From Yuukianura sp. NJ FZ-2021 (lineage: Eukaryota), in contig CM102284.1 in the NCBI GenBank assembly GCA_046563655.1, positions 7,750,001 through 7,814,000 of the forward strand: 64,000 nucleotides of DNA, in the 5' to 3' direction. The stretch's first letter is position 1; each line of letters starts with the position of its first letter. The notes under the pieces are model-generated. The model had not been told where the DNA came from. It was given only the letters and a program-made list of their open reading frames with translations, and made no database searches. The position numbers and the translations under genes were made by a program. Below, piece by piece: positions 3,001 to 56,037 of the stretch.

Positions 3001-3352
3001 TTGTATGAAAAAAATGAATTTTTTGACAAAAATTGAGCTTGGTTCATTTCAGATGGGCTTTCCGAGGCAACATATCGGAGTGCAATTTTCAGTTCTCAGA
3101 AAGCTCAGAATGACTTTTTGGGGAGTTTTGTATGAAAAACATGAATTTGTTGGCAAAAATTGAGCTTGGTTCATTTCAGATGGGCTTTCCGAGGCAACAT
3201 ATCGGAGTGCAATTTTCAGTTCTCAGAAAGCTCAGAATGACTTTTTGGGAGTTTTGTATGAAAAACATGAATTTTTTGACACAAATTGAGCTTGGTTTAC
3301 TTCAGATGGGCTTTCCGTGGCAAAATATCGGAGTGCAATTTTCAGTACTCAG
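1..3352 (+). repeat. ~127-bp tandem satellite DNA array (segment 1)
   Basis: Head-to-tail monomer AAAATTGAGCTTGGTTCAYTTCAGATGGGCTTYCCGAGGCAAMATATCGGAGTGCAATTTTCAGTTCTCAGAAAGCTCAGAATGACTTTTTGGGGAGTTTTGTATGA(n)TGAATTTTTTGACA. Length is 126-129 bp depending on the A-run. An identical variant block recurs at 338, 1737 and 3132 (~1.4 kb = 11 monomers). Confidence 0.98.
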
Positions 3353-3937
3353 TGAGGGAAAGCTCGGAGGTGAACTCCCCAACGGGCCGACTCGCGGTCA
3401 CCCGAGAACGTCTGACGACGGAAATAAAGGGGCAGGGGGTCACGGGAGCTGTTAGAATATGATTAGTAATTTATTGAACGGACAAATGATACAGTTACGG
3501 CCAATTTTGTAGTAGTAGGAGAGATGAGCGTTCCTGGTCGGATCAACCAGGTATTCCTGGTCTGTCCAGGAAGTCCAGTGGGGGTGAATCGAGGTCAAAT
3601 CCGGGTCAATAGAGGCAGTAGCGGGTCCAGACACGAAGAAAGAAGATGGCTGCTACTGGGAACTGGAGTGACGAGGTCTTCTCCTTGTGAGATGTTGTGG
3701 ACGACTGTGTCCAGAGAAGATGGAGGAGGAAGAAGATGAAACTGCCAGAAGGAGCTGGGGGAAGTTGCTGATGCAATCCTCGGCGACTGTGATTGGCTGC
3801 TGAGTGGACTGGTGTTCTGGCGTCTCCGGAACTGCAGGGGGACAAGAGGGATTGTTGTGCTGCTATTGTTGAGTGGAGCGGAGGAGGACGAGGGAGCCGT
3901 ATAGGCTTTGAGAGGGGTTTGGGGATACCTCCCCACA
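3353..3937 (-). repeat. 3' LTR (585 bp)
   Basis: On the minus strand it reads TGTGGGGAGG...TTCCCTCA and is nearly identical to 15117-16254 once the TRIM is removed. AATAAA on the minus strand at 3470-3475. Confidence 0.95.
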
Positions 3938-4003
3938 GATTCCCAGCGATCAAGGGAGCCGCCACGGCGACAAACCGAGGAACTCCGAAGCGATTCGGGG
4001 AAG

Positions 4004-5239
4004 CTACTGAGATGGTGGAGGGGGATCCTTGGGATGATTTTTCTTTGGTGGTGGGGGACAATTCGCAGAGTTCTCTGCCCACCAACGAGCACGTCGCTGT
4101 TGCCGATTCGGGGCTGGGGGGAAACGTCCTTGTGCAGGAGCTTGGGGAAAACGTCCTTGTGCAGGAGCTTGGGGAAAACGTCCTTGTGCAGGAGCTGGGG
4201 GAACTGGAGCAGCGTTTGAAGGGTCCTGGGGGTTATTCCACGTGACGGTGACTGACGTTGCGCTGGCTGGAACGTATGCGTGGATGGGGATCAGTCCAGG
4301 GGGAACATTCGTTGACTGGAACGTGGAGCTGGAAGCTGCTGCTGAGATGGGGATAGTGATGGAACCGGAAGTGGCTGCTGGAACTGATGATGTGGCTTGG
4401 GGAACTCCTTGTGCTGGGGAAACTGCTTGTGCTGAGGAAGATGATGAAGAGGAATTCGAATTTGGGCGGGAATTTGAGGAATGTGGCCGAATTGATGATG
4501 CTGGAGCCGAATTTTGAGCCAATGGGGGACGAGTAGGATACGGAGCTGGACGAATTGGCCGAGTTAGGATCCGAATTGGTTGAGCCGAGGGGGTAGAGTT
4601 GCGGGATCCAGAATTTTGGGGGGTTTGAGTGTTCAGAGTGACTTTTGACATGTCACGAGCCAAGACGGAGAGGGAACCAGATCCAGAAGTACCAGCTTGA
4701 GGAGGTTTTGGGGGTCCATCCGGGAACTTCAAATCCATAAGCGGGACGACCTTGGCTGCAGCAGACTTCTGGACTTGCGGATTGGATTTCGTCGCAGGAG
4801 CAGAGGGACGACGAAACATCGGTGAATTTTGGGACGAGGGGGGAATCACAACGACCGAAGCAAGCTTTGGACGAGTGACTGGGGGAATAACCATCTCCTG
4901 AAGGCTCTTCTGAGGGGAACGGTGGTTGAAACTGCCAGAGCTATGGGGGGACTGACGATCCAGCTTCTTCGGCGATTTTGGCGGGGATGGAGGAGCGAGC
5001 GGCATGTCCCAATCATCCGGAATCGGATCCACTTGACGCGGAGTAATCGGCGCAGCGATGACAGTCGTAGGGGGCGAAGAAGACGAAGACGGAGATGAGG
5101 AAGAAGAGCCAGGAGAAGCAGTATCACGCGGAGGTGGAGAATTCAGCAGTTCATCTTCAGCGGCCAAGTCTATTTCCGCAATTCCCTCAGAAGCATCATC
5201 CTCTCCTTGTTCCATCAAATCCTCCGGTGGTTGGTCCAT
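4004..5239 (-). CDS. Third (env-position) ORF of the gypsy element, Pro/Ser-rich and predicted disordered, ~411 aa, not env-like
   Basis: Long open frame between pol and the 3' LTR. The ATG (MDQPPEDL) lies 1 nt after a polypyrimidine-CAG splice acceptor (tgttttttatgattttcag|G ATG, AG at 5241-5242). No signal peptide or TM segment is visible. Confidence 0.7.
   Translation of the reverse strand: MDQPPEDLMEQGEDDASEGIAEIDLAAEDELLNSPPPRDTASPGSSSSSPSSSSSPPTTVIAAPITPRQVDPIPDDWDMPLAPPSPPKSPKKLDRQSPHSSGSFNHRSPQKSLQEMVIPPVTRPKLASVVVIPPSSQNSPMFRRPSAPATKSNPQVQKSAAAKVVPLMDLKFPDGPPKPPQAGTSGSGSLSVLARDMSKVTLNTQTPQNSGSRNSTPSAQPIRILTRPIRPAPYPTRPPLAQNSAPASSIRPHSSNSRPNSNSSSSSSSAQAVSPAQGVPQATSSVPAATSGSITIPISAAASSSTFQSTNVPPGLIPIHAYVPASATSVTVTWNNPQDPSNAAPVPPAPAQGRFPQAPAQGRFPQAPAQGRFPPAPNRQQRRARWWAENSANCPPPPKKNHPKDPPPPSQ
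4113..4203. repeat. 27-bp in-frame minisatellite (3.3 copies) within ORF3
   Basis: GCTTGGGGAAAACGTCCTTGTGCAGGA x3, encoding (Q/P)APAQGRFP repeats on the minus strand. Confidence 0.9.
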
Positions 5240-5287: not shown

Positions 5288-8200
5288 TCAGCGCTTTTTA
5301 GGTTTTGTAAGGCGGGAAATTAATGACAGAGCTTTTGTACGTGCCGCGCGCATTGGTTGAGCAGAAATCGCGGGATTTACGCTGGCAGGGGCGCAAATTA
5401 CGGGGTTTTCGCTCGCAACAGGGAGCAGGGAATCCTGTGCGGGTAAAACTGGTGGAACTGGTATTTCTGGGGCGGGGCTTTCTGGGGAAGCATTTTCGAC
5501 ATCATTTTGGGGATCAAAATTTGGGGTCAACTCGGGAAGCGTAAAAGGGCTAATTTCGGGATCTTCAGGGGGCAAACTCGGAATTTCAAGGGGAATTGGA
5601 TCGGGGGTAACTTCTGGAGCCTGTAACGACTGAGGGGTGTCAAAATCATCGTCAGACGACTCACGGGAACTACTGTCAAAATCAGAAACATCATAAAGAC
5701 GCTGGTGGTAAGGTTTTAATCGTTGTACGTTAACGACTGTCTCGTGAGGTTTTCGAGGGGGGACCGAAGATACACGAACAGTTCCATTTGCAAGGACGTC
5801 AATGACCTTGTAAGGGCCAATCCATTTCTTAGTGAACTTCCCGACGTGACCTTTTTTCCTTTGAAAGTTCTGGAGTAGAACTTTCATACCAGCAACGTAG
5901 GTGGGGAAACGAATCTGCATTTGAGCTTTTACTCGTAAGAGCTGTTGCTCACGAGACAACTCATGGGCTACGTTGTTGGCGATGAATAATCTGTCAAAAG
6001 GATCATTAGGGGTCAAATAATCTTGGGGAAGGGGAAACAACTTGTCTACCGGCAAAACCGGCTCCCGACCAAAGACAAGAAAATATGGGGAGAAATTAGT
6101 TACCCGATGTACTGAACAATTTACGGAGAAAACTGCTTTGGGAAGGTGGAGATCCCAATCTTTATGGTTTTCACTTACGAATTTGGCGATGACAGATTTT
6201 ACCGTTCCGTTATGTCTCTCACAGACACCGTTTGACTTGGGATTATAGGCAGTCGTAGAACGGTGGTCAATGGAATGGAGGGCAAGGAAATCCTCAAACT
6301 CTTCGGACTGAAAAACCGTGCCACGGTCTGAGAGAATCATCTTGGGAATACCATGACGATACAGGACGTGTTTGGTAAGGACTTTGATCGCTTGAGCAGA
6401 ATCTGCTGAGGGAACGGGCCAAGCTTCAACGTAACGGGTATGGAGGTCAACTATGGTAAGGATATAGGTATTTCTCCTCGCTGTGATGGGAAATGGACCA
6501 AGGTAATCCACAGCAAGTGCGTTAAAGGGAATGGCGGGAACGTCAAGGCCAACGCTATTAGGGGGAAGAGCAAAGTTCCGTCGATTATGTACTTGACACA
6601 AGTGGCAAGATGTGACAAATTTGACTAAGTCACGGTACATCCGGGGCCAATAAAACCGGGAACGAAGGAGATGCCAGGATTTGTGTAGTCCAAGGTGACT
6701 AAGGGAATCATTGTGGACGGATTCCATGGAGGATTTTCTGAGGGACTTAGGAAGACAAAGACGCCAAAGGTTACCAAATTCTGAGTAGTTCATTTTGTAC
6801 AAAACTCCATCACGCAGACTAAATTCGCTCAACTTTTTCGGTTCCGCTAAGGAGTGGGGTTTACCTAGCTGCTCTGCTTTTAAGTACTCAATTAGGGGTA
6901 GCCATTCTGGCTCTTTAAGTTGGAGTTCCTTCACCTTTGACTCACGAACTTTCCGGGGAGCTTCAGGGGAAACTGCTAAGGACAGAAGATGATGTTCAAT
7001 GGCCAAATGGTCTGTGTCGGAAGGGGCGGGGTCAACGGGGTTTCGGGAAAGCGGGTCCGCATCCGTGTGGATACGGCCACTCTTATGGACAACTGTAAAG
7101 TCGTAGGGCTGGAGGGCTAAGGACCAACGGGAAATTTGGCCATAAGGGTCTTTGAATTTTAGCATGTCACAGAGGGAATGGTGGTCTGTGACAACTTTAA
7201 AATGACGCCCGTATAAATACGGACGAAATTTCTCGACAGCCCAAACAAACGCTTTCATTTCCAATTGGGGGGTCCCAAACTTCGACTCGGAGGGGGAAAG
7301 AGCTCGCGAAGCAAAAGCTACAACTCTCTCTACACCATCTTGAATTTGACAAAGCGTTGCTCCGAAACCAAGTCCAGACGCATCACAATGGACGGACGTC
7401 TCTGCTTCTTCGTCGGGAAACGCTAGGACTGGGGGAGAAGTCAACTTGTCTTTCAAAGTTTGGAACGCTACCTCGGCTTCAGGGGTCCAGAAAAATGGGG
7501 TACCACGTTTTGTAGCTATTATAAGATGGAGGGGACGGGCAATTTCCGCGAAACCTTTAATAAACCTTCTGTAATAACTGCAAAGACCAACAAAGGAACG
7601 GACATTTTTAACAGTCGTGGGGGTAGGGAAATCACGAACTGCTTGGGTTTTCTGGGGATCAACTGCAATTCCTTCACGGGAGACAATGTGACCAAGGAAT
7701 TTCAAAGAATCTTCGGCAAAGTAACACTTTTTGGGTTTTAAACTGAGACCAGCTTTACGGAGAGCACAGAAAATCTGCGCTAAATGGTCCAAGTGTTCGT
7801 CAAAGGAACGGGAGTAACAAACGACATCGTCTAAGTAAACGAGTGCTATGGACCATTTTAAACGACCAAGGACATTGTCAATGAGACGCTGCCAAGTCGC
7901 TGGGGCATTGGTTAATCCAAAGGGCATGACAACGAATTCGTACTGTCCGTCGGGGGTAACGAAGCTGGTTTTCTCTCTGTCCTCGGGTTCCACCTCGACT
8001 TGGTAGTACGCCTGGTCACAATCCATTGAGGAAAAGTACTTGGCACCATTTAAACGATCCAGGGTGTCGTCTATTCGGGGGAGGGGATAGGAATCCTTTC
8101 TTGTCACTGCGTTGACTTTACGAAAGTCAACGCAAAACCGCCAACTTTCGTCGGGCTTTTTAACAAGAAGGACTGGGGAACACCAAGGGCTATCGCTGGG

Positions 8201-8500
8201 GGTAATCGCCTTAAGATCCAAAAGACGCTCGACTTGGTTTTGAATTTCTCTCCGCTCCGTGAAACCTGTTCTATGGGGATTGGATGCTATCGGTTTCGTA
8301 GTTCCTGTGTCAATTTTGTGGGTCGTTAAATGAGTACGGCCAAGAGTTGATGGATCGAAATTAAAAACATCCAAATTTGATACAAGAAAATCCTGCATCT
8401 TTTGGCGCTGTTCAGGGGTTAGGGTTTTGGAGATCTTAAACGCCTCAATCCTCTTTTGCAGTTTCAGAGACGCGATGTCATCCATCATCATCAACTGCAA
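5288..8500 (-). CDS. pol: Pol polyprotein, RT-RNase H-integrase part
   Basis: RT motifs (WRFCVDFRKVN, MPFGLTNAP, YLDD). RNase H (CDASG, TDHHSL, DADPLSR). Integrase HHCC (HNDSLSH...CHLC) and DDE (VDYLG, SDRG, ERHN). GPY/F motif (WIGPYKV). Confidence 0.96.
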   Translation of the reverse strand: MQLMMMDDIASLKLQKRIEAFKISKTLTPEQRQKMQDFLVSNLDVFNFDPSTLGRTHLTTHKIDTGTTKPIASNPHRTGFTERREIQNQVERLLDLKAITPSDSPWCSPVLLVKKPDESWRFCVDFRKVNAVTRKDSYPLPRIDDTLDRLNGAKYFSSMDCDQAYYQVEVEPEDREKTSFVTPDGQYEFVVMPFGLTNAPATWQRLIDNVLGRLKWSIALVYLDDVVCYSRSFDEHLDHLAQIFCALRKAGLSLKPKKCYFAEDSLKFLGHIVSREGIAVDPQKTQAVRDFPTPTTVKNVRSFVGLCSYYRRFIKGFAEIARPLHLIIATKRGTPFFWTPEAEVAFQTLKDKLTSPPVLAFPDEEAETSVHCDASGLGFGATLCQIQDGVERVVAFASRALSPSESKFGTPQLEMKAFVWAVEKFRPYLYGRHFKVVTDHHSLCDMLKFKDPYGQISRWSLALQPYDFTVVHKSGRIHTDADPLSRNPVDPAPSDTDHLAIEHHLLSLAVSPEAPRKVRESKVKELQLKEPEWLPLIEYLKAEQLGKPHSLAEPKKLSEFSLRDGVLYKMNYSEFGNLWRLCLPKSLRKSSMESVHNDSLSHLGLHKSWHLLRSRFYWPRMYRDLVKFVTSCHLCQVHNRRNFALPPNSVGLDVPAIPFNALAVDYLGPFPITARRNTYILTIVDLHTRYVEAWPVPSADSAQAIKVLTKHVLYRHGIPKMILSDRGTVFQSEEFEDFLALHSIDHRSTTAYNPKSNGVCERHNGTVKSVIAKFVSENHKDWDLHLPKAVFSVNCSVHRVTNFSPYFLVFGREPVLPVDKLFPLPQDYLTPNDPFDRLFIANNVAHELSREQQLLRVKAQMQIRFPTYVAGMKVLLQNFQRKKGHVGKFTKKWIGPYKVIDVLANGTVRVSSVPPRKPHETVVNVQRLKPYHQRLYDVSDFDSSSRESSDDDFDTPQSLQAPEVTPDPIPLEIPSLPPEDPEISPFTLPELTPNFDPQNDVENASPESPAPEIPVPPVLPAQDSLLPVASENPVICAPASVNPAISAQPMRAARTKALSLISRLTKPKKR

Positions 8501-10316
8501 GTCCGAGGATTTCGTGCGCTGGGAGGGGGGATTGGGAGAATTGGGAGCTCACATGACCGAATTCGTCTAGGTCACAGAGTACTGAGGACTCTGCGAAGGG
8601 TTCAAAGGTGCCTATGGAGATGTTTTGCAGAAGTTTAACTGGTCGGTCTCCCAAATTCCACAAGAAAGTAACTCCAGCACCATCCTTAAGGGTGGAAATA
8701 AAATTTCCAATGGCGATATGTTTTGCATACTGGAGCTCCTGACGAGGGGAAACAAGAACATCCCCGGTGAAAGGGAGATCTGTCTTGACGCTTACGCGTT
8801 TCATAGTTCTTGGGTTGATGATGATGGACCTGACCAGACGTAGGCACGGAGGGGGCGAAGATTTTTGTGACAAATTCGAGTTACTGACGAAGGAAACTTC
8901 AGAGTCAAGTAACGAAAGGGATTTAGGGGAATCAGACGAATTCTGGGTCATGTCATGAACTAGTTTAGGGGGATTGGCCGTACATGGGGGATTTGACACA
9001 GGTTCTGGATCCGACGCAATGGGAGAGCTGGGGGTATCTGAAACTTGTTCAGTTTCAGACAATGTTAATTTGTTTAGAACAGGGACTTGGGATTTGGGTA
9101 CACAGACATACTCATTTCTGAGGTCTGTGCAGGGGAGTTCACCTTTTACAAGGCGCTCGTTAGCGGGATCCAAGAGAAAACGTTCTGAACGGAGAAAGTC
9201 AGAACCCAAAACGATTTCATTTGAAAGGTGCTGGAAAATGTAGAACGGGTATTGGAATGGGACGCCGTCAATGGAGAAAGAAATCATTGTAGTCTGGGGG
9301 GAATTACAACGGACGTACGAACCAAAGGACAGTTTCACACGAACGGGTTCCACATCAACCGCTTGGGACACGATATTGGGTAATTTTCGGAGAAATTCGG
9401 GGTGGACACAACATAGGGAAGCACCTGTGTCACACAGGACTCGGAGGGTTTGGGTACCGAAGACTACATCAGTGTGGAACGTAGAATGTTGAGTAGAATG
9501 AATTTGGGACATGAATTTAGCCACTGAAATTCCCATAGGAAATTCGGACTCGGGGACTGGGGAATTAATTTGGGACTCATCAACGGGGGTTGTATCTGGG
9601 GTACTGGAATTTGCAGCTAGGATCTCTGGGGAACTATTAACCCAGTCAGCAGTTCTGCCTTGGATCGAGGGGGGATTTCCAAATTTTGAAGTGAGCGAAA
9701 CAGCTTTAGGATCTGGAGCAAAACGACAAATTTCGTCTTTGGGATCAGTTTTCGGATCATAGGGCCAATGAGCAGGGGGACCAACACAAACAGAAGCAGC
9801 TTTTGGAGCGGGAACGGAACATTGAACAAATATTTTCGGATCAGTAGCGTCAGTTTTCGGATCTGGAACACAAATAGGAGCAAGATTAGAACTAGGATAA
9901 ATTTTAGGAGCCGACTTAGGAGCAAAATTAATTTTAGGATCAGTTTTCGGAGCAAAATTAGGATCAGAATTAGGAACTATTGGAGCGTCAGAACAAGGAA
10001 CGGGGAACTTGGTTGTAAGGTTCCCAGCGATCAAAGGTGAAGTAGGGCTGGGATTACATTGGGAACATTTCTGCTGTTGGACAAAAAGAGTTTGCAATTT
10101 GGTAAAGAACTCTTCTAGGGAAAATGGACTTTGAAATTGGGGCTTCCTGCCAAAAGCCTTTAAATTTCTGTGGGTTTTGAAAGTTGGGGATTTGAATTTT
10201 CGATTATTGGAACGTTTGGGACAAGCTCTTATAGGAGCTGGGACCAAATTTTTAGGGATTGAATTGGGAGTTGGTAGAGGCTGTCGTCCCTGCAACGGCA
10301 GCTCTACTGGTTTTCC
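8478..10316 (-). CDS. pol: Pol polyprotein N-terminal part (long spacer + aspartic protease), in the -1 frame relative to gag
   Basis: Retropepsin motifs VLCDTGAS and IVLGSDFL. The frame is open back to the gag end. It joins the RT frame if one extra G in GATGATGATGGATGAC (8482-8483) is removed. Confidence 0.85.
   Translation of the reverse strand, partial: GKPVELPLQGRQPLPTPNSIPKNLVPAPIRACPKRSNNRKFKSPTFKTHRNLKAFGRKPQFQSPFSLEEFFTKLQTLFVQQQKCSQCNPSPTSPLIAGNLTTKFPVPCSDAPIVPNSDPNFAPKTDPKINFAPKSAPKIYPSSNLAPICVPDPKTDATDPKIFVQCSVPAPKAASVCVGPPAHWPYDPKTDPKDEICRFAPDPKAVSLTSKFGNPPSIQGRTADWVNSSPEILAANSSTPDTTPVDESQINSPVPESEFPMGISVAKFMSQIHSTQHSTFHTDVVFGTQTLRVLCDTGASLCCVHPEFLRKLPNIVSQAVDVEPVRVKLSFGSYVRCNSPQTTMISFSIDGVPFQYPFYIFQHLSNEIVLGSDFLRSERFLLDPANERLVKGELPCTDLRNEYVCVPKSQVPVLNKLTLSETEQVSDTPSSPIASDPEPVSNPPCTANPPKLVHDMTQNSSDSPKSLSLLDSEVSFVSNSNLSQKSSPPPCLRLVRSIIINPRTMKRVSVKTDLPFTGDVLVSPRQELQYAKHIAIGNFISTLKDGAGVTFLWNLGDRPVKLLQNISIGTFEPFAESSVLCDLDEFGHVSSQFSQSPLPAHEILGLAVDDDG
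10274..10316 (-). promoter_or_regulatory. Putative -1 programmed ribosomal frameshift signal (G_GAA_AAC + stem-loop)
   Basis: Heptamer GGAAAAC at 10310-10316, just before the gag TAG. It is followed by the hairpin GTAGAG-CTG-C-CGT/TGCAGGG/ACG-A-CAG-C-CTCTAC (10274-10307). The protease ORF is in the -1 frame. Confidence 0.65.
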
Positions 10317-11624
10317 GGAGGCGGTGTTTGTTTAGGAAGGACGGCTGCAGCGATGTTCTGGAGAAGATCCGTCATTGTTCCGAAAGCAGTCATCATCGTC
10401 TTGGTCCAATCAGCATCCGGACGAGGAACATTTTGAGACTGTGCTGGAGGGTTTGGACTGGTTTGCAATGGGCGAGTGTCAATATTTGGGTAGGGACGTT
10501 GAACAGCTTGGCTATAATAGCCTTGCTGCTGGGGGGATACAGGCTGAGGAGGATGGTTTTCTGGTAATGCACGCTGAGTGCCATTGTAACCAGGGAGCCG
10601 CCAAGTAGGGGTACGACAGTGTTTCATAATGTGCCCACTCCGGTTACAGCGATTGCAAATCGGTCGTCCTTCAGCATCTCGATTGTTAATGAACCGCGTT
10701 CTCTGTTGAGCAGGTTGAGCAGGAACTTGGGGGGTAACAGGAACGTTTGTAATTTGTTGGTTCTGGGTAGGGGACGACTGAGGGAACTGCATTGGGGGGT
10801 TAGGGGCAGCTGCCATTTCAAAAGCCTGCATTGAGACTACAGGGGAAGAGCCATCTTTGGGACGGGTATGGACTTCTGCAACTCGCCGTAGAATCTTCTG
10901 AAAGTCGGAGGGGGTTTGAATATTGAGCATTACAAAACCTTTTTCAAGGTCTGCTGGGAGTCCACAGATGAGATATTCAACCTTTCGGCTGTCACTCATT
11001 TTGGGATCCAAACGAGACAAAATAACAATTTTGTCCGCTACGTATTTGTCAATACAGTCACCCAATTTGTAACGTAGGGACTTATTCTGGGCTCGGAAAT
11101 CATCTCTACGCTCTTTAAGGGAAAAATGGGAAATGAACTGATTTTCAAACTCAGTCCAGACAGCATCAGGGTCTTTAGTGGGATCTTCAAGTTGTTCTCG
11201 AAAGTGGGGCCAAATTGAGATGAACCAAGAGCTAGCGACTCCAGTCAAAACTATCGAAGTGGCTCAATGCTCCATAAGATCCGAATCCAGTTCCTCTCAA
11301 ATCGTATTCGTAGCGAGCAAGAAATTCAGCAGGGTCACTCGTTCCATCGTACTTCCGGATGTGTTTGAAAATTTTGATGTCTTGGGTACAAGGGAAGGGG
11401 GCATTAGGAGCCCTATTGGCTTGTGTACCATCGCTGTACACAGAACCAGGAGTAGCTGGTTGCTGCGGATTGTTAGGAACTGGAGGGGGCATGGCAAAAG
11501 TAGGATGGTAGTTTTGTTGTGCTGGCTGCAGAGGAATTGTGGACTGGGATGGGGAAGGGCCTTGTTGTTGCGTTTGACCTTGTACTGGAGGGGAAGACCT
11601 GGGTCTCGCAAAATATGTCAACAT
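10304..11624 (-). CDS. gag: Gag (split by one frameshift near 11248)
   Basis: ORF 11232-11624 has capsid-like KYDGTSDPAEFLARYE. ORF 10304-11248 continues with LTGVASSWF, YLICGL and the CCHC knuckle CNRCNRSGHIMKHC. The break lies in a T4 homopolymer. Confidence 0.88.
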
Positions 11625-11636
11625 TGGGGAATCTCC

Positions 11637-12050
11637 TTAGTATCTTCGTTCTTGCAGACGGGGATTCTCGTATTCAAAGACAAGCCAGCCTTGGGTACTT
11701 GCGTAGTATTTGAAACACCAGCGGTAAATGGGACTGAAGAAGCTCCAATGATAGTACAAGAGTCTAACCAGAAGAGCTAGGCAGTAGTAGGTTTCAGTAC
11801 CGACAAGGACTCCAAGTAGTTCTGCGTAGGCTCGAGGATTCCGTCGTAAGTAGAGAACTGGGGCAACGTGTAGGGCCAGAAAATCAACAAAGACTGAAAA
11901 AGTCGATGCTACACAGGACTGGGTAATTTCTGCAACCAGTAGGGAGAATAGGTACAGGACTTCGGTTAGGAACAAGATTAAACAGCTTGCAAAAAATAAA
12001 GCTGTTGCAGCAATTAGAATAGTTCGGATTAGGGGCCAAGCGATCCACAT
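11637..12050 (-). CDS. Hydrophobic, probably membrane-spanning small ORF (137 aa) directly upstream of gag
   Basis: ATG-initiated. Hydrophobic runs TILIAATALFFASCLILFLTEVLYLFSLLV, TFSVFVDFLALHVAPVLYL and LLGVLVGTETYYCLALLV. Its stop is 12 nt before the gag ATG. Confidence 0.55.
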   Translation of the reverse strand: MWIAWPLIRTILIAATALFFASCLILFLTEVLYLFSLLVAEITQSCVASTFSVFVDFLALHVAPVLYLRRNPRAYAELLGVLVGTETYYCLALLVRLLYYHWSFFSPIYRWCFKYYASTQGWLVFEYENPRLQERRY

Positions 12051-12097
12051 TTGCAGTGGGTTTCACTATTACCTCAACCGCTTTTCAGCGTTTGGGC

Positions 12098-12214
12098 TTA
12101 TTGGAGGAAATTGACAAGGATCGAAATCAAAAAGAATAGGGTAAGGTACTGGACAACAACTGCAATAACTGCTATGAGTATGATCAAAACGATGGCAATG
12201 AAGGGGTGGGACAT
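12098..12214 (-). CDS. 38-aa hydrophobic upstream small ORF (not in the ORF track)
   Basis: Hand translation gives MSHPFIAIVLIILIAVIAVVVQYLTLFFLISILVNFLQ*. It has no charged residue except His and is co-oriented with gag. Confidence 0.45.
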   Translation of the reverse strand: MSHPFIAIVLIILIAVIAVVVQYLTLFFLISILVNFLQ

Positions 12215-12843
12215 CTCTCGGGTCAGTTCAGGGACTCTCTATAATACTTAAGAAATTGGATTAATTAAACAAATACTTTAAGAATTTTAAATAGTTTGAA
12301 CTTACTACTAGAAAAAATGAAATACAAAATTCAAAAATTTATGGGGGAGTACTTTAGAAGCTGCTGTCTAGGGCTATGGTTTCAAAAAAAAGAAACCAAA
12401 ATCCACAAAACAGAACTTAAAATCGAAGAAAGAATAGAACAATAAACAGAAAGATAACGAGCTGTAGAGACGGAGCAGCCAAGCCAAACCAAATTACAAA
12501 ACCGTAGAGCCACAAAGTCAATTCAAAAATTGTCATTTCTGAATTATTTTGAACCACATTGGAAGGAATAGGATTTTAGGAACTTAGATAACTTCAGTAG
12601 ATTTGCCTGCGATTTAAAATCGCAGGAGCGGGAAAATCTCCAAATTCCGAGGATTAGGTAGTCTTCAAGTGAACATACTATTTCTAGTAGCTTTATGAAA
12701 GTTCAAAGTTTTTCAACTTTTCAGAAATTTGGGCAGGGGTTTGGGGTAGCAAAACAACTTTCAATTTTGAAAAGTGGACAAAAATCTTTAAGTTTAATTA
12801 ATTAGGACGAAAACGCAACGTATTTTAGGATTTGGGAACAATT

Positions 12844-14132
12844 GTGGGGCTTAGACGTAAAAGGGCGTATATCGTTGCCAAGAAAATAATTTAATTCCAT
12901 TTGTTGATTCTAAGTGAAAGTGCTAATGTGTGAAAAATGTTGTCGGTCTGTCCGTTCCTCGTTCGCTGGTTCTGAAAGGGTCCAATTTTCTTTTCTTCTG
13001 GTAGTTAGTCCGATCGTAGAAAGTGAAATGCCCAAAACAATTTGGCCAAAAGTGAAATGGTCAGAGGTGAAATGGCCAAAAAGTAAAAAGATCAGAATTG
13101 AAATGGCCAAAAAGTGAAAAGGCCAAAATGTAAAAACGCCAGAATTAAATTGACCAAAAAGTAAAAATGCCAAAAAGTGAACAGACCAAAAAGTGAAATG
13201 GCCAAAATAAGAAAAGATCAGAAAGAGAAAAGATCAGAATTTGGAAAAAAAAAATTATTTTCAGTGGGTAACTCGGATTTTCTTCATTTTTTTTTTACAA
13301 ATACCTATGAACCCCTGACTGTGAAAATATATTTGTTTTTGACCCGCTCTCAAAGGAATTTCGGATTTATAGAATATTTTGAAAATTACAATTTCCCCAT
13401 AAGGGCACATGTAAATTTTTTCTCAAAATAGGTGTTCGCTTATATTTGGTTAAGTTAGGTTACGTTTAATGAGTGACAATGGCGTTATAGCCATTAGGTT
13501 ACGTTTGGTTGTTTCGAAAAATGGGATTTAAAAAAAAAGAGTGATATTTCCCATTTTGAAAATTTTCAAAAAATCAAAATCTTCGAGAGCGGGCCAAAAA
13601 AATATGTATTTTCATAGTCAGGGGTTCACAGGTATTTGTAAAAAAAATGAAGCAAATCCGAGTTATTCATTGAAAATGATATTTTTTTTTCCAAATTCTG
13701 ATCTTTTCACTTTCTGATCTTTTCTTATTTTGGCCATTTCACTTTTTGATCATTTCACTTTTTGGCCATTTCATTTCTGGCGTTTTTACATTTTGGCCTT
13801 TTCACTTTTTGGCCATTTCATTTCTGGTCATTTCACTTTTTGGCCATTTCACTTCTGCCCTTTTCACCTCTGACCATTTCACTTTTGGCCAAATTGTTTT
13901 GGCCAATTAAATTCACATGGAATCAGTCCGATTAACGTTAGCATCAGTCAGGCCTTTTACATTTTCGTGTCCATTACGCAAATAGATAATGTCGTTATGG
14001 ATCTCTGAACTGAATTCTAACTTTCGATACTTTTTTACGTTCATTTCAAATGCAAAAATTGCTTGTTTACAAACTTTTTTGCTAAACAATTTCCGTAGCA
14101 ACGATATACGCCCTTCTTCGTCTAAGCCCCTC
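12844..14132. mobile_element. Non-autonomous TIR DNA transposon (Sola-like by termini and TSD) nested in the gypsy leader
   Basis: ~35-bp TIRs GTGGGGCTTAGACGTAAAAGGGCGTATATCGTTGC / GCAACGATATACGCCCTTCTTCGTCTAAGCCCCTC, flanked by AATT on both sides (12840-12843, 14133-14136). The superfamily call is tentative. Confidence 0.72.
13015..13924. mobile_element. Fold-back/MULE-like non-autonomous element with long modular inverted arms
   Basis: Arms ~13032-13400 and ~13540-13902 are reverse complements built of AAAAGTGAAATGGCC-type sub-repeats. The 8-bp direct repeat AGTCCGAT at 13007-13014 and 13925-13932 is the candidate TSD. Confidence 0.72.
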
Positions 14133-15023
14133 AATTTAAGCCGGTTTCTGAAAAATCCGACTAGTCAGGGGAAAAGTGAAGCCTGCGTACGGTTGTAGTT
14201 GCGGGCTAATAGGAAATCGGAAAAATCTGCCGACTCAGGGAATTAGTCACTTTTGCAAATAAATTTGCAAAAGCGCGAAAATTTCAAACTGTTTTAGATT
14301 TCAAAAAAAATTTGACGGGGGGGTGTTAGGGGTTCTACTTTTTTTAATTTAGGACGTTGTACCAAATTTCAAAAACCAAAATTTCGAAAAACTTTCAATT
14401 TAAGGGACAGGGGGCAATAACTTTTGAAAAAGGGGCCAAAGCTAAGGGGATTAGGAGCTGTGATAGCTGTGGAGCTGTTTTTAGGTAGCTGGGGCGCTGC
14501 GCTATCTTTAAACAAAACTCGAATTTTGAAAAAAACGCTTATTTTGAAAAAAACGCTAAGTTTTTGAAAATTTAAAAAATTTTGGACAGGGGGACGGGTA
14601 TATTTTACAAAAGTTGCTCGGGGGACACGTTTGCTAAAAAAAAAACAAAACAAAACGCGCAAAAGAAAAGAAGGAAACGCTGACCTCGATGTGACCTTGC
14701 CTCACAGGTCAATTGATTGTTGGTTGGAGGCTGACGAAGAAGATGACGTGGTCCGAGGTGACGTGGCCAGGAGTGATGTGGAGCGTGGAAGGGTGTGGAG
14801 CGTGGAATTCGGCTCTACGGCTGCTATGGCTGAAGATGTGGTGTGTGTTGGGTGGTGTGGAGCGTGGCTTTTGGCTGGTACGGCGTGGCTCTCGCTCCGA
14901 ACTCGCTTTTCCAGAAAGATCTGGAAATTATCCAAAAAAAATATTTTAGAAAATTATGAAACAATGAAAAAAATTTCCTAAAAATGAAAAAAATTAGGGT
15001 GGGGTCACGGTGGGTCCTTTGGT

Positions 15024-15114
15024 GGAGCCGGTTGGCTCCGATTGGTATGATTCCGCTTCGGCTGTGTAGAGGTCAAGTGAGGTCACGGGTCTCGATTCCC
15101 GGCTGATGCGCCCA
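15024..15114 (+). ncRNA. Degenerate full-length tRNA-Pro(CGG)-like sequence ending in CCA, whose complement forms the gypsy PBS
   Basis: GTTGG..GGTATGATTC-CGCTTCGG..AGAGGTC..CGGGTCTCGATTCCCGG..CCCA follows eukaryotic tRNA-Pro(CGG) collinearly (comparison from memory). It ends 2 nt from the 5' LTR, so the minus strand reads LTR-AG-TGGGCGCATCAGCCGGGAAT. Confidence 0.7.
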
Positions 15115-15199
15115 CTTGAGGGAAAGCTCGGAGGTGAACTTGTGACGTTCAGGGGTCACATGGCTTGAGAGACAAAGAACGAGAGTGTAGAAAAAATAA

Positions 15200-15274
15200 G
15201 TGACCGAGTGGGATTCGAACCCACGTCTTTCTCCAATCCGGGGAGACTGCACTGCCCTTATGCTACCAGGCCAC
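15200..15274 (-). ncRNA. tRNA-like Pol III cassette in the TRIM 3' LTR
   Basis: GTGGCCTGG TA GCAT-AAGGGCA-GTGC AG TCTCC-CCGGATT-GGAGA AAGAC GTGGG-TTCGAAT-CCCAC TCGGTCAC. D, anticodon and T arms are present, with A box TAGCATAAGGG and perfect B box GGTTCGAATCC, followed by TTATTTTTT. Confidence 0.85.
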
Positions 15275-15388
15275 ATTCTACAAACCTCTCGAAGGATGGA
15301 GCAATTGGAAGGCAGCTATCCCAGCTATCTCTTCCATGCAATCCTCATCCAGTGGCGAGTGGGAATGGGTTTCTTCCCAAACGCCACA

Positions 15389-15400
15389 CCACCCGCCCCT
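15389..15400 (-). promoter_or_regulatory. TRIM polypurine tract
   Basis: AGGGGCGGGTGG immediately before the 3' LTR. Confidence 0.75.
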
Positions 15401-15425
15401 CAAGCCCCCTATTGCCGTATCCCGG

Positions 15426-15437
15426 CGTTGGGCGCCA
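15426..15437 (-). promoter_or_regulatory. TRIM primer-binding site, tRNA-Lys(CTT)
   Basis: TGGCGCCCAACG, 2 nt after the 5' LTR, matches the canonical Lys1,2 PBS start TGGCGCCCAACGTGGGG. Confidence 0.85.
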
Positions 15438-15498
15438 TATGTGACGTTCAGGGGTCACATGGCTTGAGAGACAAAGAACGAGAGTGTAGAAAAAATAA

Positions 15499-15573
15499 GT
15501 GACCGAGTGGGATTCGAACCCACGTCTTTCTCCAATCCGGGGAGACTGCACTGCCCTTATGCTACCAGGCCAC
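15499..15573 (-). ncRNA. tRNA-like Pol III cassette in the TRIM 5' LTR
   Basis: Identical copy of 15200-15274, offset by 299 bp. Confidence 0.85.
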
Positions 15574-16254
15574 ATTCTACAAACCTCTCGAAGGATGGAG
15601 CAATTGGAAGGCAGCTATCCCAGCTATCTCTTCCATGCAATCCTCATCCAGTGGCGAGTGGGAATGGGTTTCTTCCCAAACGCCACAAACTCCCCAACGG
15701 GCCGACTCGCGGTCACCCGAGAACGTCTGACGACGGAAATAAAGGGGCAGGGGGTCACGGGAGCTGTTAGAATATGATTAGTAATTTATTGAACGGACAA
15801 ATGATACAGTTACGGCCAATTTTGTAGTAGTAGGAGAGATGAGCGGTCCTGGTCGGATCAACCAGGTATTCCTGGTCTGTCCAGGAAGTCCAGTGGGGGT
15901 GAATCGAGGTCAAATCCGGGTCAATAGAGGCAGTAGCGAGTCCAGACACGAAGAAAGAAGATGGCTGCTACTGGGAACTGGAGTGACGAGGTCTTCTCCT
16001 TGTGAGATGTTGTGGACGACTGTGTCCAGAGAAGATGGAGGAGGAAGAAGATGAAACTGCCAGAAGGAGCTGGGGGAAGTTGCTGATGCAATCCTCGGCG
16101 ACTGTGATTGGCTGCTGAATTGGAGCTGGTGGTCTGGCGTCTCCGGAACTGCAGGGGGACAAGAGGGATTGTTGTGCTGCTATTGTTGAGTGGAGCGGAG
16201 GAGGACGAGGGAGCCGTATAGGCTTTGAGAGGGGTTTGGGGATACCTCCCCACA

Positions 16255-16298
16255 TCAGAAAGCTCAGAATGAATTTTTGGGGAGTTTTGTATGAAAAA
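16255..16298 (+). repeat. 44-bp satellite remnant between the gypsy and HINE insertions
   Basis: TCAGAAAGCTCAGAATGAATTTTTGGGGAGTTTTGTATGAAAAA continues the monomer interrupted at 3352. Confidence 0.95.
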
Positions 16299-17428
16299 CA
16301 AGGTAGGGCAATGCTCAAGGGTTGAGCATAGGTCTTCTGGAGGCAGTGGACAATTGATACGGTTTTTACACCCGCTGTCCGCAAACGCAAGAAAAACGAT
16401 AAGAGACCGTTTTCACGAGATTTATGCAACGAAACGTGGCTCATAATTTTCAGTGGAGATATGGTTCCTTTTTGTGCATGAGTTGACTCATCAAGACTAC
16501 GTTGATAATTTTACTGTTTAATTGCACCAAAATCATTTTCTAATTGTAAGTTCCAAAACATCTGCACTGAAATAATGTTCATATTTTTTGTTGAGTAAAA
16601 TGCACAAATGTCAATGTTGTCATGACAATATAGCACACACAGTGTTAACATAGCTGCACTAAAATTATGGTGTTAAACAAGTTGCACAACTGTTCCGCGG
16701 TATGGACAACTTGCTACGTAAAATGGTTTGCTTATAATGAACATTGTTTATGATAAATGTGCAATTGTTATCAAATATGCACAAATTGGTAGTATTAACG
16801 TACATTACCCAGCGTCAAAATAACTGCGCAATTCGACATTTATGTGCATCTACTTATAAATGTGCACAAAGTTGAACGTTGAGTAGCAGGCCTCGAATAT
16901 AGCTTTTTTAAAATCAAAATCAGTTCAAATACATGCACCATGTGTTAAATCAAGTGCATAAGTAATAGAATCGGATATCGCTTGTTCAAATCAAAATTAT
17001 AGAAATTTCTTGTAAAGGCCAAAATTGACACCTTTTATACACTATTCAGATATTAAACATTTAAGTCGGATTTTCTACCCTCTGATCAGTCTTAATTTAA
17101 CAACGTAACTAAACATACTACCAGAAAATGACCAGATCAAAACTCCGTTGTTTATAAATACTTTGAGTGCAATCGAAACCAAAACTGTTTTGCGGAGCCA
17201 CGATACTGCGGGTACGTAAAGTAGCCGCCCAATTCTACGTTGTTAATGTACGACTTTAAGTGCAATGTAGACCTAATGAAAACACTTAAGCGATACAAGA
17301 CACCCCGTCAATAATGGAGGTAATGTTTGAGCGCAAGTTGTCCTAAAAAACGTTACGGACAGACAGACAGACAAAGTCGTATCAATAGTCTTCTTCAGCA
17401 TGTCGTAGACATGCGTCTCCAGAAGACT
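16299..17428 (-). mobile_element. Helentron-associated non-autonomous element (HINE / DINE-1-like)
   Basis: 11-bp subterminal inverted repeats GTCTTCTGGAG (16332-16342) / CTCCAGAAGAC (17417-17427), a partial inverted subTIR copy and a (CTGT)n microsatellite (17357-17373) near the 5' end. 3' stem-loop ATGCTCAA-nnn-TTGAGCAT (16311-16329) and CTTGTT end. Inserted in the satellite A/T run without a clear TSD. Confidence 0.85.
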
Positions 17429-20400
17429 AAAATGAATTTTTTGACAAAAATTGAGCTTGGTTCACTTCAGATGGGCGTTCAGAGACAAAATATCGGAGTG
17501 CAATTTTCAGTTCTCAGAAAGCTCAGAATGACTTTTTAGGGAGTTTTGTATGAAAAAAAATGAATTTTTTGACAAAAATTGAGCTTGGTTTACTTCAGAT
17601 GGGCTTTCCGTGGCAAAATATCGGAGTGCAATTTTCAGTACTCAGAAAGCTCAGAATGAATTTTTGGGGAGTTTTGTATGAAAAAAATGAATTTTTTGAC
17701 AAAAATTGAGCTTGGTTCACTTCAGATGGGCGTTCAGAGACAAAATATCGGAGTGCAATTTTCAGTTCTCAGAAAGCTCAGAATGACTTTTTAGGGAGTT
17801 TTGTATGAAAAAATGAATTTTTTGACAAAAATTGAGCTTGGTTCACTTCAGATGGGCTTCCCGAGGCAACATATCGGAGTGCAATTTTCAGTTCTCAGAA
17901 AGCTCAGAATGACTTTTTGGGGAGTTTTGTATGAAAAACATGAATTTGTTGGCAAAAATTGAGCTTGGTTCATTTCAGATGGGCTTTCCGAGGCAACATA
18001 TCGGAGTGCAATTTTCAGTTCTCAGAAAGCTCAGAATGACTTTTTGGGGAGTTTTGTATGAAAAAATGAATTTTTTGACAAAAATTGAGCTTAGTTCATT
18101 TCAGATGGGCTTTCCGAGGCAACATATCGGAGTGCAATTTTCAGTTCTCAGAAGGCTCAGAATGACTTTTTGGGGAGTTTTGTATGAAAAAATGAATTTT
18201 TTGACAAAAATTGAGCTTGGTTCACTTCAGATGGGCGTTCAGAGACAAAATATCGGAGTGCAATTTTCAGTTCTCAGAAAGCTCAGAATGACTTTTTAGG
18301 GAGTTTTGTATGAAAAAAATGAATTTTTTGACAAAAATTGAGCTTGGTTCACTTCAGATGGGCTTCCCGAGGCAACATATCGGAGTGCAATTTTCAGTTC
18401 TCAGAAAGCTCAGAATGACTTTTTGGGGAGTTTTGTATGAAAAACATGAATTTGTTGGCAAAAATTGAGCTTGGTTCACTTCAGATGGGCGTTCAGAGAC
18501 AAAATATCGGAGTGCAATTTTCAGTTCTCAGAAAGCTCAGAATGACTTTTTGGGGAGTTTTGTATGAAAAAATGAATTTTTTGACAAAAATTGAGCTTGG
18601 TTCACTTCAGATGGGCGTTCAGAGACAAAATATCGGAGTGCAATTTTCAGTTCTCAGAAAGCTCAGAATGACTTTTTGGGGAGTTTTGTATGAAAAAATG
18701 AATTTTTTGACAAAAATTAAGCTTGGTTCACTTCAGATGGGCTTCCCGAGGCAACATATCGGAGTGCAATTTTCAGTTCTCAGAAAGCTCAGAATGACTT
18801 TTTGGGGAGTTTTGTATGAAAAACATGAATTTGTTGGCAAAAATTGAGCTTGGTTCACTTCAGATGGGCGTTCAGAGACAAAATATCGGAGTGCAATTTT
18901 CAGTTCTCAGAAAGCTCAGAATGACTTTTTTGGGAGTTTTGTATGAAAAAAATGAATTTTTTGACAAAAATTGAGCTTGGTTCACTTCAGATGGGCTTCC
19001 CGAGGCAACATATCGGAGTGCAATTTTCAGTTCTCAGAAAGCTCAGAATGACTTTTTGGGGAGTTTTGTATGAAAAACATGAATTTGTTGGCAAAAATTG
19101 AGCTTGGTTCATTTCAGATGGGCTTTCCGAGGCAACATATCGGAGTGCAATTTTCAGTTCTCAGAAAGCTCAGAATGACTTTTTGGGGAGTTTTGTATGA
19201 AAAAATGAATTTTTTGACAAAAATTGAGCTTGGTTCATTTCACATGGGCTTTCCGAGGCAAAATATCGGAGTGCAATTTTCAGTTCTCAGAAAGCTCAGA
19301 ATGACTTTTTGGGGAGTTTTCAATGAAAAAAATGAATTTTTTGACAAAAATTGAGCTTGGTTCACTTCAGATGGGCTTCCCGAGGCAAAATATCGGAGTG
19401 CAATTTTCAGTTCTCAGAAAGCTCAGAATGACTTTTTGGGGAGTTTTGTATGAAAAAATGAATTTTTTGACAAAAATTGAGCTTAGTTCATTTCAGATGG
19501 GCTTTCCGAGGCAACATATCGGAGTGCAATTTTCAGTTCTCAGAAAGCTCAGAATGACTTTTTGGGGAGTTTTGTATGAAAAAAATGAATTTTTTGACAA
19601 AAATTGAGCTTGGTTCATTTCAGATGGGCTTTCCGAGGCAACATATCGGAGTGCAATTTTCAGTTCTCAGAAACCTCAGAATGACTTTTTAGGGAGTTTT
19701 GTATGAAAAAAAATGAATTTTTTGACAAAAATTGAGCTTGGTTCACTTCAGATGGGCTTCCCGAGGCAACATATCGGAGTGCAATTTTCAGTTCTCAGAA
19801 AGCTCAGAATGACTTTTTGGGGAGTTTTGTATGAAAAACATGAATTTGTTGGCAAAAATTGAGCTTGGTTCACTTCAGATGGGCGTTCAGAGACAAAATA
19901 TCGGAGTGCAATTTTCAGTTCTCAGAAAGCTCAGAATGACTTTTTAGGGAGTTTTGTATGAAAAAATGAATTTTTTGACAAAAATTGAGCTTGGTTCACT
20001 TCAGATGGGCTTCCCGAGGCAACATATCGGAGTGCAATTTTCAGTTCTCAGAAAGCTCAGAATGACTTTTTGGGGAGTTTTGTATGAAAAACATGAATTT
20101 GTTGGCAAAAATTGAGCTTGGTTCATTTCAAATGGGCTTTCCGAGGCAACATATCGGAGTGCAATTTTCAGTTCTCAGAAAGCTCAGAATGACTTTTTGG
20201 GGAGTTTTGTATGAAAAAAAATGAATTTTTTGACAAAAATTGAGCTTGGTTCATTTCACATGGGCTTTCCGAGGCAAAATATCGGAGTGCAATTTTCAGT
20301 TCTCAGAAAGCTCAGAATGACTTTTTGGGGAGTTTTCAATGAAAAAAATGAATTTTTTGACAAAAATTGAGCTTGGTTCACTTCAGATGGGCTTCCCGAG

Positions 20401-55578: not shown

Positions 55579-55610
55579 TTTTTTTTTTTTTTTTTTTTAT
55601 TTGTAAATTA

Positions 55611-55641
55611 CTCTCCCTGCGGGCCCGAAGCCCATGGAGAG
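55611..55641 (-). promoter_or_regulatory. 3'-terminal stem-loop of the non-LTR element
   Basis: Minus strand CTCTCC-ATGGGC-TTCGG-GCCCGCAG-GGAGAG, ~12 nt before the poly(A). This resembles the RT-recognition hairpins of stringent LINEs. Confidence 0.65.
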
Positions 55642-56037
55642 GGAGTTCGAGTGGAGTTTGTGTACATTAGATTACTAATTTAAATGAAATGGAATTTTAG
55701 TATAAATTTGAAATGAGCGTTGGTTCCGATGTTTTGCAACTGTCTTCATGGTATTACTGGTTGCGATGAGTGTCGAATGCAATGTGCATTGTTTGCAGTT
55801 TCATTGGTGTTGGAGGTGCTTTGTAGGTCATAGAGCATTGCTGGATGGGCTGGATTCGGCTTTGAAAGATTTGGAGATTGTTTAAAGATGCTGATTCTGA
55901 GTTTATGGATGTATTTTGGATTCGGATGTGTCAGCAGTTCCGAGGGATGAGTCTCCTTCGAAATTTGGGTTGCGAGTACGTTTGCAAGTTGTTGGAACGA
56001 TGATGAATTTGTTGAATGATGATTTGTTTTTGAGAGG

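Follow-up and report, generated by a model that had tools for sequence, protein, structure and literature searches.

The element and its three small ORFs

We begin by considering the window, by which we mean the whole stretch of 64,000 nucleotides that was analysed. It is a satellite array with a 127-bp unit, inside which lies one LTR retrotransposon on the minus strand. Near 61170-61925 a block of the array is inverted, and near 55000-57000 there is a segment of another kind. The retrotransposon is a Ty3/gypsy element, with TG...CA LTRs, a target-site duplication and a gag followed by protease, reverse transcriptase (RT), RNase H and integrase. The features are given here along the element from its 5' end, where F1 to F4 denote families of related elements, F1 being that of the window copy.

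1-3350 and 17400-64000: satellite array, 127-bp unit, about 360 copies
15117..16254, minus strand: 5' LTR, interrupted by a nested insertion
15093..15114, minus strand: primer-binding-site-like sequence, following the 5' LTR
12839..14138, no strand assigned: foldback-like insertion of about 1.3 kb in the leader, unique to the window copy among the F1 leaders compared
12417..12536, minus strand: sORF A, 39 aa, hydrophobic end to end
12308..12325, minus strand: pyrimidine tract ending in TAG between A and B, splice-acceptor-like, about 680 nt before gag
12098..12214, minus strand: sORF B, 38 aa, a strong transmembrane-like segment and a C-terminal hydrophobic or amphipathic helix
12071..12097, minus strand: predicted RNA hairpin directly 3' of the B stop, with a GAAA-containing loop in F1 and F2
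11637..12050, minus strand: sORF C, 137 aa, contains YLRRNPR, predicted all-helical membrane protein
10304..11624, minus strand: gag, Retrotrans_gag with one CCHC knuckle; frameshift near 11232-11263 in the window copy
8478..10331, minus strand: protease frame, overlapping the end of gag; frame break ahead of RT in the window copy
5288..8548, minus strand: pol, with RT, RNase H and integrase in the Ty3/gypsy order
4004..5239, minus strand: ORF3, 411 aa, Pro/Ser-rich, no hydrophobic segment, no Pfam family, in the position of env
3353..3937, minus strand: 3' LTR, TG...CA, with a TCAG target-site duplication

The copy that lies in the window is defective, given the frame breaks in gag and in protease-RT and the insertions in the leader and the 5' LTR. 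Its two LTRs are 98.9% identical over 567 nt.

The preliminary description of this DNA had placed two small hydrophobic ORFs ahead of gag; the cluster contains three, sORF A (12536-12417), about 200 nt upstream of sORF B, having been overlooked. What had been said of the other two holds. The coordinates of the 38-aa ORF are exact and its hydrophobicity is confirmed (GRAVY 2.30, no charged residues), the 137-aa ORF, credited with 2-3 transmembrane-like stretches, has one strong stretch and three weaker ones, and all lie co-oriented on the minus strand, the stop of C falling 12 nt before the gag ATG at 11624. Such hydrophobic ORFs occur at a background rate of 6 in 96 kb-strand windows (eight unrelated loci), at which at least three of them per kb would have a probability of about 4e-5.

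Conservation across four families

A protein search of the genome (98.7 Mb in 22 contigs) with sORF C gives 27 matches at 25 loci, which fall into F1 (5 loci, 99-100% identity), F2 (7 loci, about 54%), F3 (11 loci, about 41%) and F4 (2 loci, about 30%). Every one of the 25 lies directly upstream of a gag frame. C is full-length at 21 of them and gag reaches at least 400 aa at 15, a comparison that is biased because the loci were picked by C. Across the 23 loci of F1-F3, A is intact at all and B at 22; F4 has C with neither A nor B, so that the latter two are dispensable in that family, and we infer that C is the older core, A and B being later additions or lost in F4. The preliminary description had tied its reading to conservation in other copies, and the ORFs are indeed kept in further copies and further families. 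Genome searches with the F4 copy of C and with the outside homologue described below give no additional locus, and a host-gene origin of C was rejected, since its own-genome matches are all element loci. Five of the seven LTR pairs sought in F2-F4 were found (identities of 100, 100, 100, 99.8 and 97.8%), from which it follows that these families moved recently. Several further copies of the F1-F4 families are also hosted by tandem arrays, and one locus (L082 648-5872) is an F1 derivative with an internal deletion that has removed B, C, gag and pol and left in place the two LTRs, the leader, the greater part of A and some of ORF3.

A quick RT tree was computed from 68 sequences, of which 24 came from the loci, one was that of the window copy and 43 were taken from 120 database hits; in it the RTs of F1-F4 make up one clade (SH-aLRT 98), nested in a clade of unnamed metagenome elements (100). 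The closest named relatives are chelicerate proteins at 54-58% identity, and metagenome proteins stand at 59-63%. Judged by these relatives the host would be an invertebrate, probably an arthropod. The next family, F5 (RT about 50%), has no cassette at any of the six loci read; a different post-pol ORF with a CCHC zinc knuckle is seen in F5 at L066 3878-4516. Outside the genome, a single homologue of C was found among 1.84 billion representatives (P0121, 112 aa, E 4.5e-12, 38% identity), and 3930 word-sharing candidates contain none at E<=0.01. Metagenome and viral contigs queried with C, gag and RT yield no locus, a search for a longer gag homologue at E<=1e-10 finds none, and the cassette is known here from one genome.

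The primer-binding-site-like sequence, which we take to resemble the complement of the 3' end of tRNA-Gly, is strongly divergent between F1, F2, F3 and F4, and no tRNA gene matching it was found. Ahead of the 3' LTR, the stretch at 3938-3960 does not make a clean polypurine tract. Priming of the F1-F4 elements may be unusual.

Selection on the small ORFs

A, B and C are real protein-coding genes under purifying selection. The within-family dN/dS (Nei-Gojobori estimates without transition correction, from pairs that are not independent) is 0.036, 0.054, 0.149 and 0.171 for C, 0.063 (F1), 0.043 (F2) and about 0.9-0.95 (F3) for B, and 0.23, 0.30 and 0.18 for A; all computable values between families are below 0.6. 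The minimum numbers of synonymous/nonsynonymous changes within families, to be compared with site ratios of about 1:3, are 24/3, 31/6, 42/22 and 23/16 for C, 10/2 (F1), 11/2 (F2) and 4/9 (F3) for B, and 9.5/8.5, 9.5/10.5 and 4/3 for A. Binomial tests on these counts are significant for C in four of four families (p<=2e-6) and for both B and A in two of three. Within F3 the constraint on B is not significant (p 0.49) and that on A is borderline (p 0.057).

The constraint depends on the reading frame. C has a pN/pS of 0.03 when read in the true frame and of 1.07 and 7.8 when the sense frame is shifted; the corresponding values of B are 0.02, then 0.63 and infinity. The true-frame value of C matches that of the gag capsid region (0.05). 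In four of four F1 comparisons A, B and C are free of indels, and each time 2-5 indels fall in the A-B spacer. The preliminary description had named T-rich neutral sequence with dN/dS near 1 as the explanation that would undo it, and the values lie well under 1, in no frame but the true one, which favours real genes. The thymine of B is concentrated at codon position 2 (0.68, versus 0.24 and 0.29 at the others), so neutral T-richness is no explanation of its hydrophobicity.

Predicted structure and family searches

All three proteins are predicted to insert into membranes, and C is predicted to contain a helical hairpin. Residues M1, E5, L8, W9, G12, W16 and A20 of A are invariant. The B of F1 has no K or R, and in F3 hydropathy gives B a transmembrane segment with a basic amphipathic helix behind it. 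The strong hydrophobic stretch of C covers residues 11-29 (KD 2.55), and the weaker, partly adjoining ones cover 31-49, 50-68 and 77-95 (KD 1.5-1.7). Hydropathy also leaves about 10 residues, a basic one among them, ahead of the first hydrophobic helix; by the positive-inside rule the preceding basic residues suggest that this helix is N-in, not N-out as in FAST proteins. Helices 2 and 3 are weakly hydrophobic, with approximate insertion energies of +3 to +6 in most members. Residues W5, C46, P64, R69, V81, L82, E86, R96 and H101 are invariant in C. The basic patch YLRRNPR pointed out earlier is present in C, and as a basic patch it is modest, with 3 K/R per 10 residues and R69 alone invariant.

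From shallow alignments of 11 and 10 sequences, AlphaFold2 gives two models of C, and both show three long helices, of which the second and third form a hairpin via a basic loop (pLDDT 77 and 76; pTM 0.48 and 0.41). By prediction an N-terminal hydrophobic helix precedes the hairpin (44-68 and 72-100, with a short basic loop), and an aromatic C-terminal helix follows. No Pfam family matches A, B, C or ORF3, PDB sequences give one weak unrelated match (DPS, E 0.036), Foldseek has no match at E<=0.001 and the ESM Atlas no usable match for C. A fold search with the window's C returns generic helical hairpins (best Z 7.0, rmsd 4.2, 76 aligned), and SARS-CoV-1 Orf3a (Z 6.7, rmsd 5.0, 77 aligned) is tied with unrelated entries. 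With the outside homologue the best match is a designed protein (Z 8.3, rmsd 2.5, 65 aligned), and MARVEL or FAST proteins do not occur among the 50 matches listed. A language-model score of this homologue against the MARVEL domain (PF01284) is 0.77-0.78, under the 0.9 mark, and hhalign against two partial host MARVEL-like frames gives a probability of 0.1-0.4%. That A, B and C are paralogues of each other was considered and rejected (hhalign probability at most 1.2%).

The leader and its translation

The leader from A to gag is cleared of start codons. The 912 nt of the window contain no ATG other than the starts, against 10.7-13 expected, and four representative copies (about 900 nt each) have 0, 2, 0 and 0 non-start ATGs against 9.3-10.7 expected from dinucleotide content, while the anagram triplets of ATG occur 6-19 times. 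Three uninterrupted F1 leaders (2.18 kb) hold 4, 7 and 6 ATGs in all, against 18-19 expected. Conservative Poisson probabilities for the depletion run from 0.019 to 4e-6, and pol has no depletion (41 versus 37). This clearing points to leaky scanning or reinitiation as the means by which A, B, C and gag would be translated. The F4 leader is less cleared and has several short ATG ORFs before C, so pure scanning is not universal, and in the window copy the foldback-like insertion (12839-14138) brings many upstream ATGs into the leader. Scanning over about 895 nt to a third ORF is described for rice tungro bacilliform virus, a plant pararetrovirus (PMC3542737), and the p10 of avian reovirus is reported to be encoded on a tricistronic mRNA that is translated by leaky scanning (PMC2978376).

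The hairpin after the B stop is replaced in F3 by a different predicted hairpin in the same place, the z values in F1-F3 being -3.1, -3.8 and -3.1. Between F1 and F2 both sides are changed in 2 of 10 pairs, which may be two events only. The splice-acceptor-like site between A and B is kept in F1-F3, and a branch-point/pyrimidine/AG sequence stands directly before ORF3 in all four families; spliced RNAs that use these two acceptors may also exist. No strong splice donor was found in the element families examined.

Two kinds of fusion protein were tried and rejected. As to a C-Gag readthrough product, the C stop and gag share a frame in 13 of 21 copies, but the spacer varies between 11 and 18 nt (54-55 nt in F4), and TAA is the usual stop. 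For a fixed spliced fusion of a membrane ORF to ORF3, the offset from acceptor to ATG differs (1, 0, 0 and 2 nt for F1 to F4), and A, B and C contain no strong conserved donor; the sole shared donor-like word, aagGTCAG, is weak and upstream of A.

ORF3 and the absence of env

The element is an env-less Ty3/gypsy retrotransposon, as had been stated before: the interval between pol and the 3' LTR holds a hydrophilic ORF alone, and in F1-F4 no env-like ORF, with signal peptide and membrane anchor, is found between pol and the 3' end. ORF3 is hydrophilic in all four families, with about 400 aa (197 aa in F4), and is under purifying selection (dN/dS 0.12-0.30, 8 pairs). A C-terminal RxQRRAxWWA-like motif is conserved in F1-F3.

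Comparison with known systems

The closest counterpart in organization is the Drosophila MDG1 group (412, mdg1, Stalker, Blood and Tabor), which likewise consists of env-less Ty3/gypsy elements with co-oriented short ORFs before gag that are under purifying selection, and with a small membrane protein (here predicted) adjoining gag. In the report on that group, sORF1 is nuclear and sORF2 is a single-pass protein, usually myristoylated, with a juxtamembrane polybasic patch; sORF2 lies upstream of gag on unspliced RNA of env-less elements, and it sits on protrusions of the membrane by which capsids are brought into the oocyte (10.1101/2025.03.14.642691). The same text states that two of six MDG1 sORF2s have no myristoylation motif, that palmitoylated FAST variants exist and that fusion was not reproduced in cell culture, and it describes two smORFs upstream of the capsid gene in a nackednavirus (10.1101/2025.03.14.642691). 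Its screen, which yielded 105 insect sORF2/FAST-like candidates, requires a myristoylation motif and a single membrane helix and, according to its authors, misses other forms (10.1101/2025.03.14.642691). According to two further papers, env and sORF2 never occur together in drosophilids (PMC13486581) and the 412/MDG1 clade groups with insect errantiviruses (PMC13524379).

The differences are considerable. The cassette has three hydrophobic ORFs where the MDG1 group has a nuclear sORF1 (about 110 aa) and a single-pass sORF2 (about 70 aa), and F1-F4 carry the additional ORF3 after pol. Between the primer-binding site and gag, the uninterrupted F1 copies have no ATG ORF of at least 20 aa besides A, B and C, and no non-membrane sORF1 of about 110 aa is present. 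Unlike the MDG1 sORF2, C is built round a core of several helices with conserved polar residues, the length of A and B is about 40 aa, and the myristoylation motif is missing: MGxxxS/T occurs in 0 of 11 proteins tested, C having an invariant Cys46. The preliminary description had reported no Gly2 motif and claimed no homology, a caution that was right. With respect to the length range of 60-210 aa for sORF2/FAST, C (108-137 aa) lies inside and A and B (38-44 aa) lie below. As regards a single N-out/C-in helix with an ectodomain of 10-50 aa, C has, from hydropathy only, one strong and two or three weak segments; no polybasic region directly follows its first helix, and the basic loop comes about 40 residues later, with 2-4 K/R in 10. 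By the published criteria, the predicted proteins A, B and C are not members of the sORF2/FAST group and are analogues at best.

There is a likeness, too, to small membrane proteins from viruses that have no envelope, namely the reovirus FAST proteins (p10, p13-p15), the nackednavirus smORF2 and the megrivirus ORF2. A FAST protein passes the membrane once in the N-out sense, is acylated and has a polybasic region beside the membrane; in A, B and C these features are absent or doubtful. Among class II viroporins, such as HCV p7 and picornavirus 2B, the likeness to C is in the predicted helical hairpin with its short basic loop and in the N-terminal hydrophobic helix before it; C differs in that it has no sequence link to them and in that its hairpin is weakly hydrophobic. 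Plant-lineage Ty3/gypsy elements with extra ORFs, one of them upstream of gag, are known as well, and there the ORFs are large and no similarity is shown. The literature searched, with most subscription papers and Repbase outside its scope, reports no cassette of three membrane ORFs in a gypsy element. Accessory membrane sORFs of env-less gypsy elements are already known; those described here encode candidate membrane proteins of no known family.

In another gypsy family of this genome, with an RT 43-45% identical to that of the window, an ORF of 460-540 aa lies directly upstream of gag, at the following places:

L055 4771-6148, minus strand
L056 4782-6161, plus strand
L059 4760-6388, minus strand
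L060 4655-6037, minus strand
L018, in a nested copy

The ORF of L056 is a membrane-type matrix metalloproteinase (Peptidase_M10 at E 3e-44, hemopexin and a C-terminal hydrophobic anchor).

Possible functions of the cassette

We propose that A, B and C form an accessory cassette of an env-less Ty3/gypsy clade, which would remodel the host-cell membrane for an envelope-free transfer of capsids between cells; we would put the probability of this reading at about 0.45. The full-length RNA would give A, B and C by leaky scanning or reinitiation; splicing, at the acceptor between A and B as well as at that before ORF3, would be optional. The three proteins would insert into the host-cell membrane and remodel it, and capsids would then pass into a neighbouring (germ) cell without an envelope. 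We favour envelope-free transfer because of the position of the ORFs, the absence of env, the proposed coupling of their translation to that of gag and the precedent of the MDG1 group; the role in transmission is an analogy with the sORF2 of that group. Counting against transfer, A, B and C fail the sORF2/FAST screen (no motif in any, A and B too short, extra helices and no polybasic run in C), the first helix of C is probably N-in, F4 does without A and B and has a less cleared leader, B looks neutral and A borderline within F3, F5 is env-less without a cassette, and even for sORF2 fusion could not be repeated in cultured cells.

Several other explanations may be considered. It is possible, if somewhat doubtful, that C is a viroporin-like or membrane-shaping protein of the producing cell, which oligomerises in the ER, the endosome or the nuclear envelope with A and B as small partners, and which would support capsid assembly, trafficking or nuclear entry without any transfer between cells. 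The predicted helix-loop-helix of C, which we take to resemble that of class II viroporins such as HCV p7, with invariant R69 in its short basic loop and conserved polar residues in hydrophobic helices (H61, E86, R96 and H101), is consistent with such a protein, as is the F3 form of B, with its transmembrane segment and basic amphipathic helix. Helices 2 and 3 of C, however, are so weakly hydrophobic that they may sit on the membrane and not cross it, and to our knowledge most Ty3/gypsy elements finish their intracellular cycle without such a gene. Small single-pass viral accessory proteins often antagonise host factors, HIV-1 Vpu being an example, and the proteins could in the same way counter a restriction or immune factor at membranes, with ORF3 as a further host-modulating factor. 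The fast divergence of A and B between families (24-50% identity, where RT has 85-94%) and the captured host-modulating genes in other gypsy families of the genome agree with this, but there is no sign of positive selection, as all computable between-family dN/dS values are below 0.6, and no host partner has been identified, so we regard it as unlikely.

A role in cis is also improbable for the cassette as a whole. The ORFs would then be regulatory upstream ORFs, whose translation throttles Gag synthesis or whose nascent hydrophobic chains bring the genomic RNA to the ER for assembly. The cleared leader, the fixed spacers and the hairpin after B show a tuned translation and could fit A and B in particular; C, on the other hand, keeps W5, C46, P64, R69, E86, R96 and H101 in four families and the outside homologue at 26-38% identity, which exceeds what a targeting signal needs. 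That all three are chance frames in T-rich leader DNA is scarcely credible. The sense strand of the leader does have 34-37% T, and B in F3 alone looks neutral, but frame-specific purifying selection, the indel-free ORFs of F1, the fixed length and position in three or four families and the outside homologue of C all stand against chance, which is already refuted for C, and through F1 and F2 also for A and B.

A bolder form of the transfer reading is that the cassette is an independent multi-protein apparatus for envelope-free infection, in which C, with A and B as micropeptide subunits and a spliced, proline-rich and cytoplasmic ORF3, would carry capsids from soma to germline. We hold this rather unlikely. 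If true, it would add a third route to those of Env and sORF2/FAST, together with a new family of fusogens or pores. Envelope-free spread of LTR retrotransposons has so far been shown for one protein type, sORF2, and the cassette would be either a form missed by the sORF2 screen or an unrelated solution. It consists of three selected genes for predicted membrane proteins, of no known family, which stand on the leader that gag translation must traverse. The proteins are tiny and easily expressed, which makes the number of Env-free routes across cell boundaries directly testable, and any other function of A, B and C would still make them a new class of retrotransposon accessory protein.

Other mobile elements in the window

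The foldback-like insertion in the leader has long terminal inverted repeats, in which 16-bp tandem units occur. The insertion that interrupts the 5' LTR is as follows:

15141..15687, no strand assigned: nested miniature LTR element with two 248-nt repeats, target-site duplication AACT

The two 248-nt repeats are identical, ARAGORN calls a tRNA-Ser(GGA) in each, and the 51-nt interior has a TGGCGCCC-type primer site. We take this element to resemble a TRIM carrying a tRNA, to be compared with Cassandra and its 5S RNA. Outside the 5' LTR, and adjoining it, lies about 1.1 kb of non-satellite DNA (16290-17430), the ends of which recur next to other element copies; it is probably another small mobile element.
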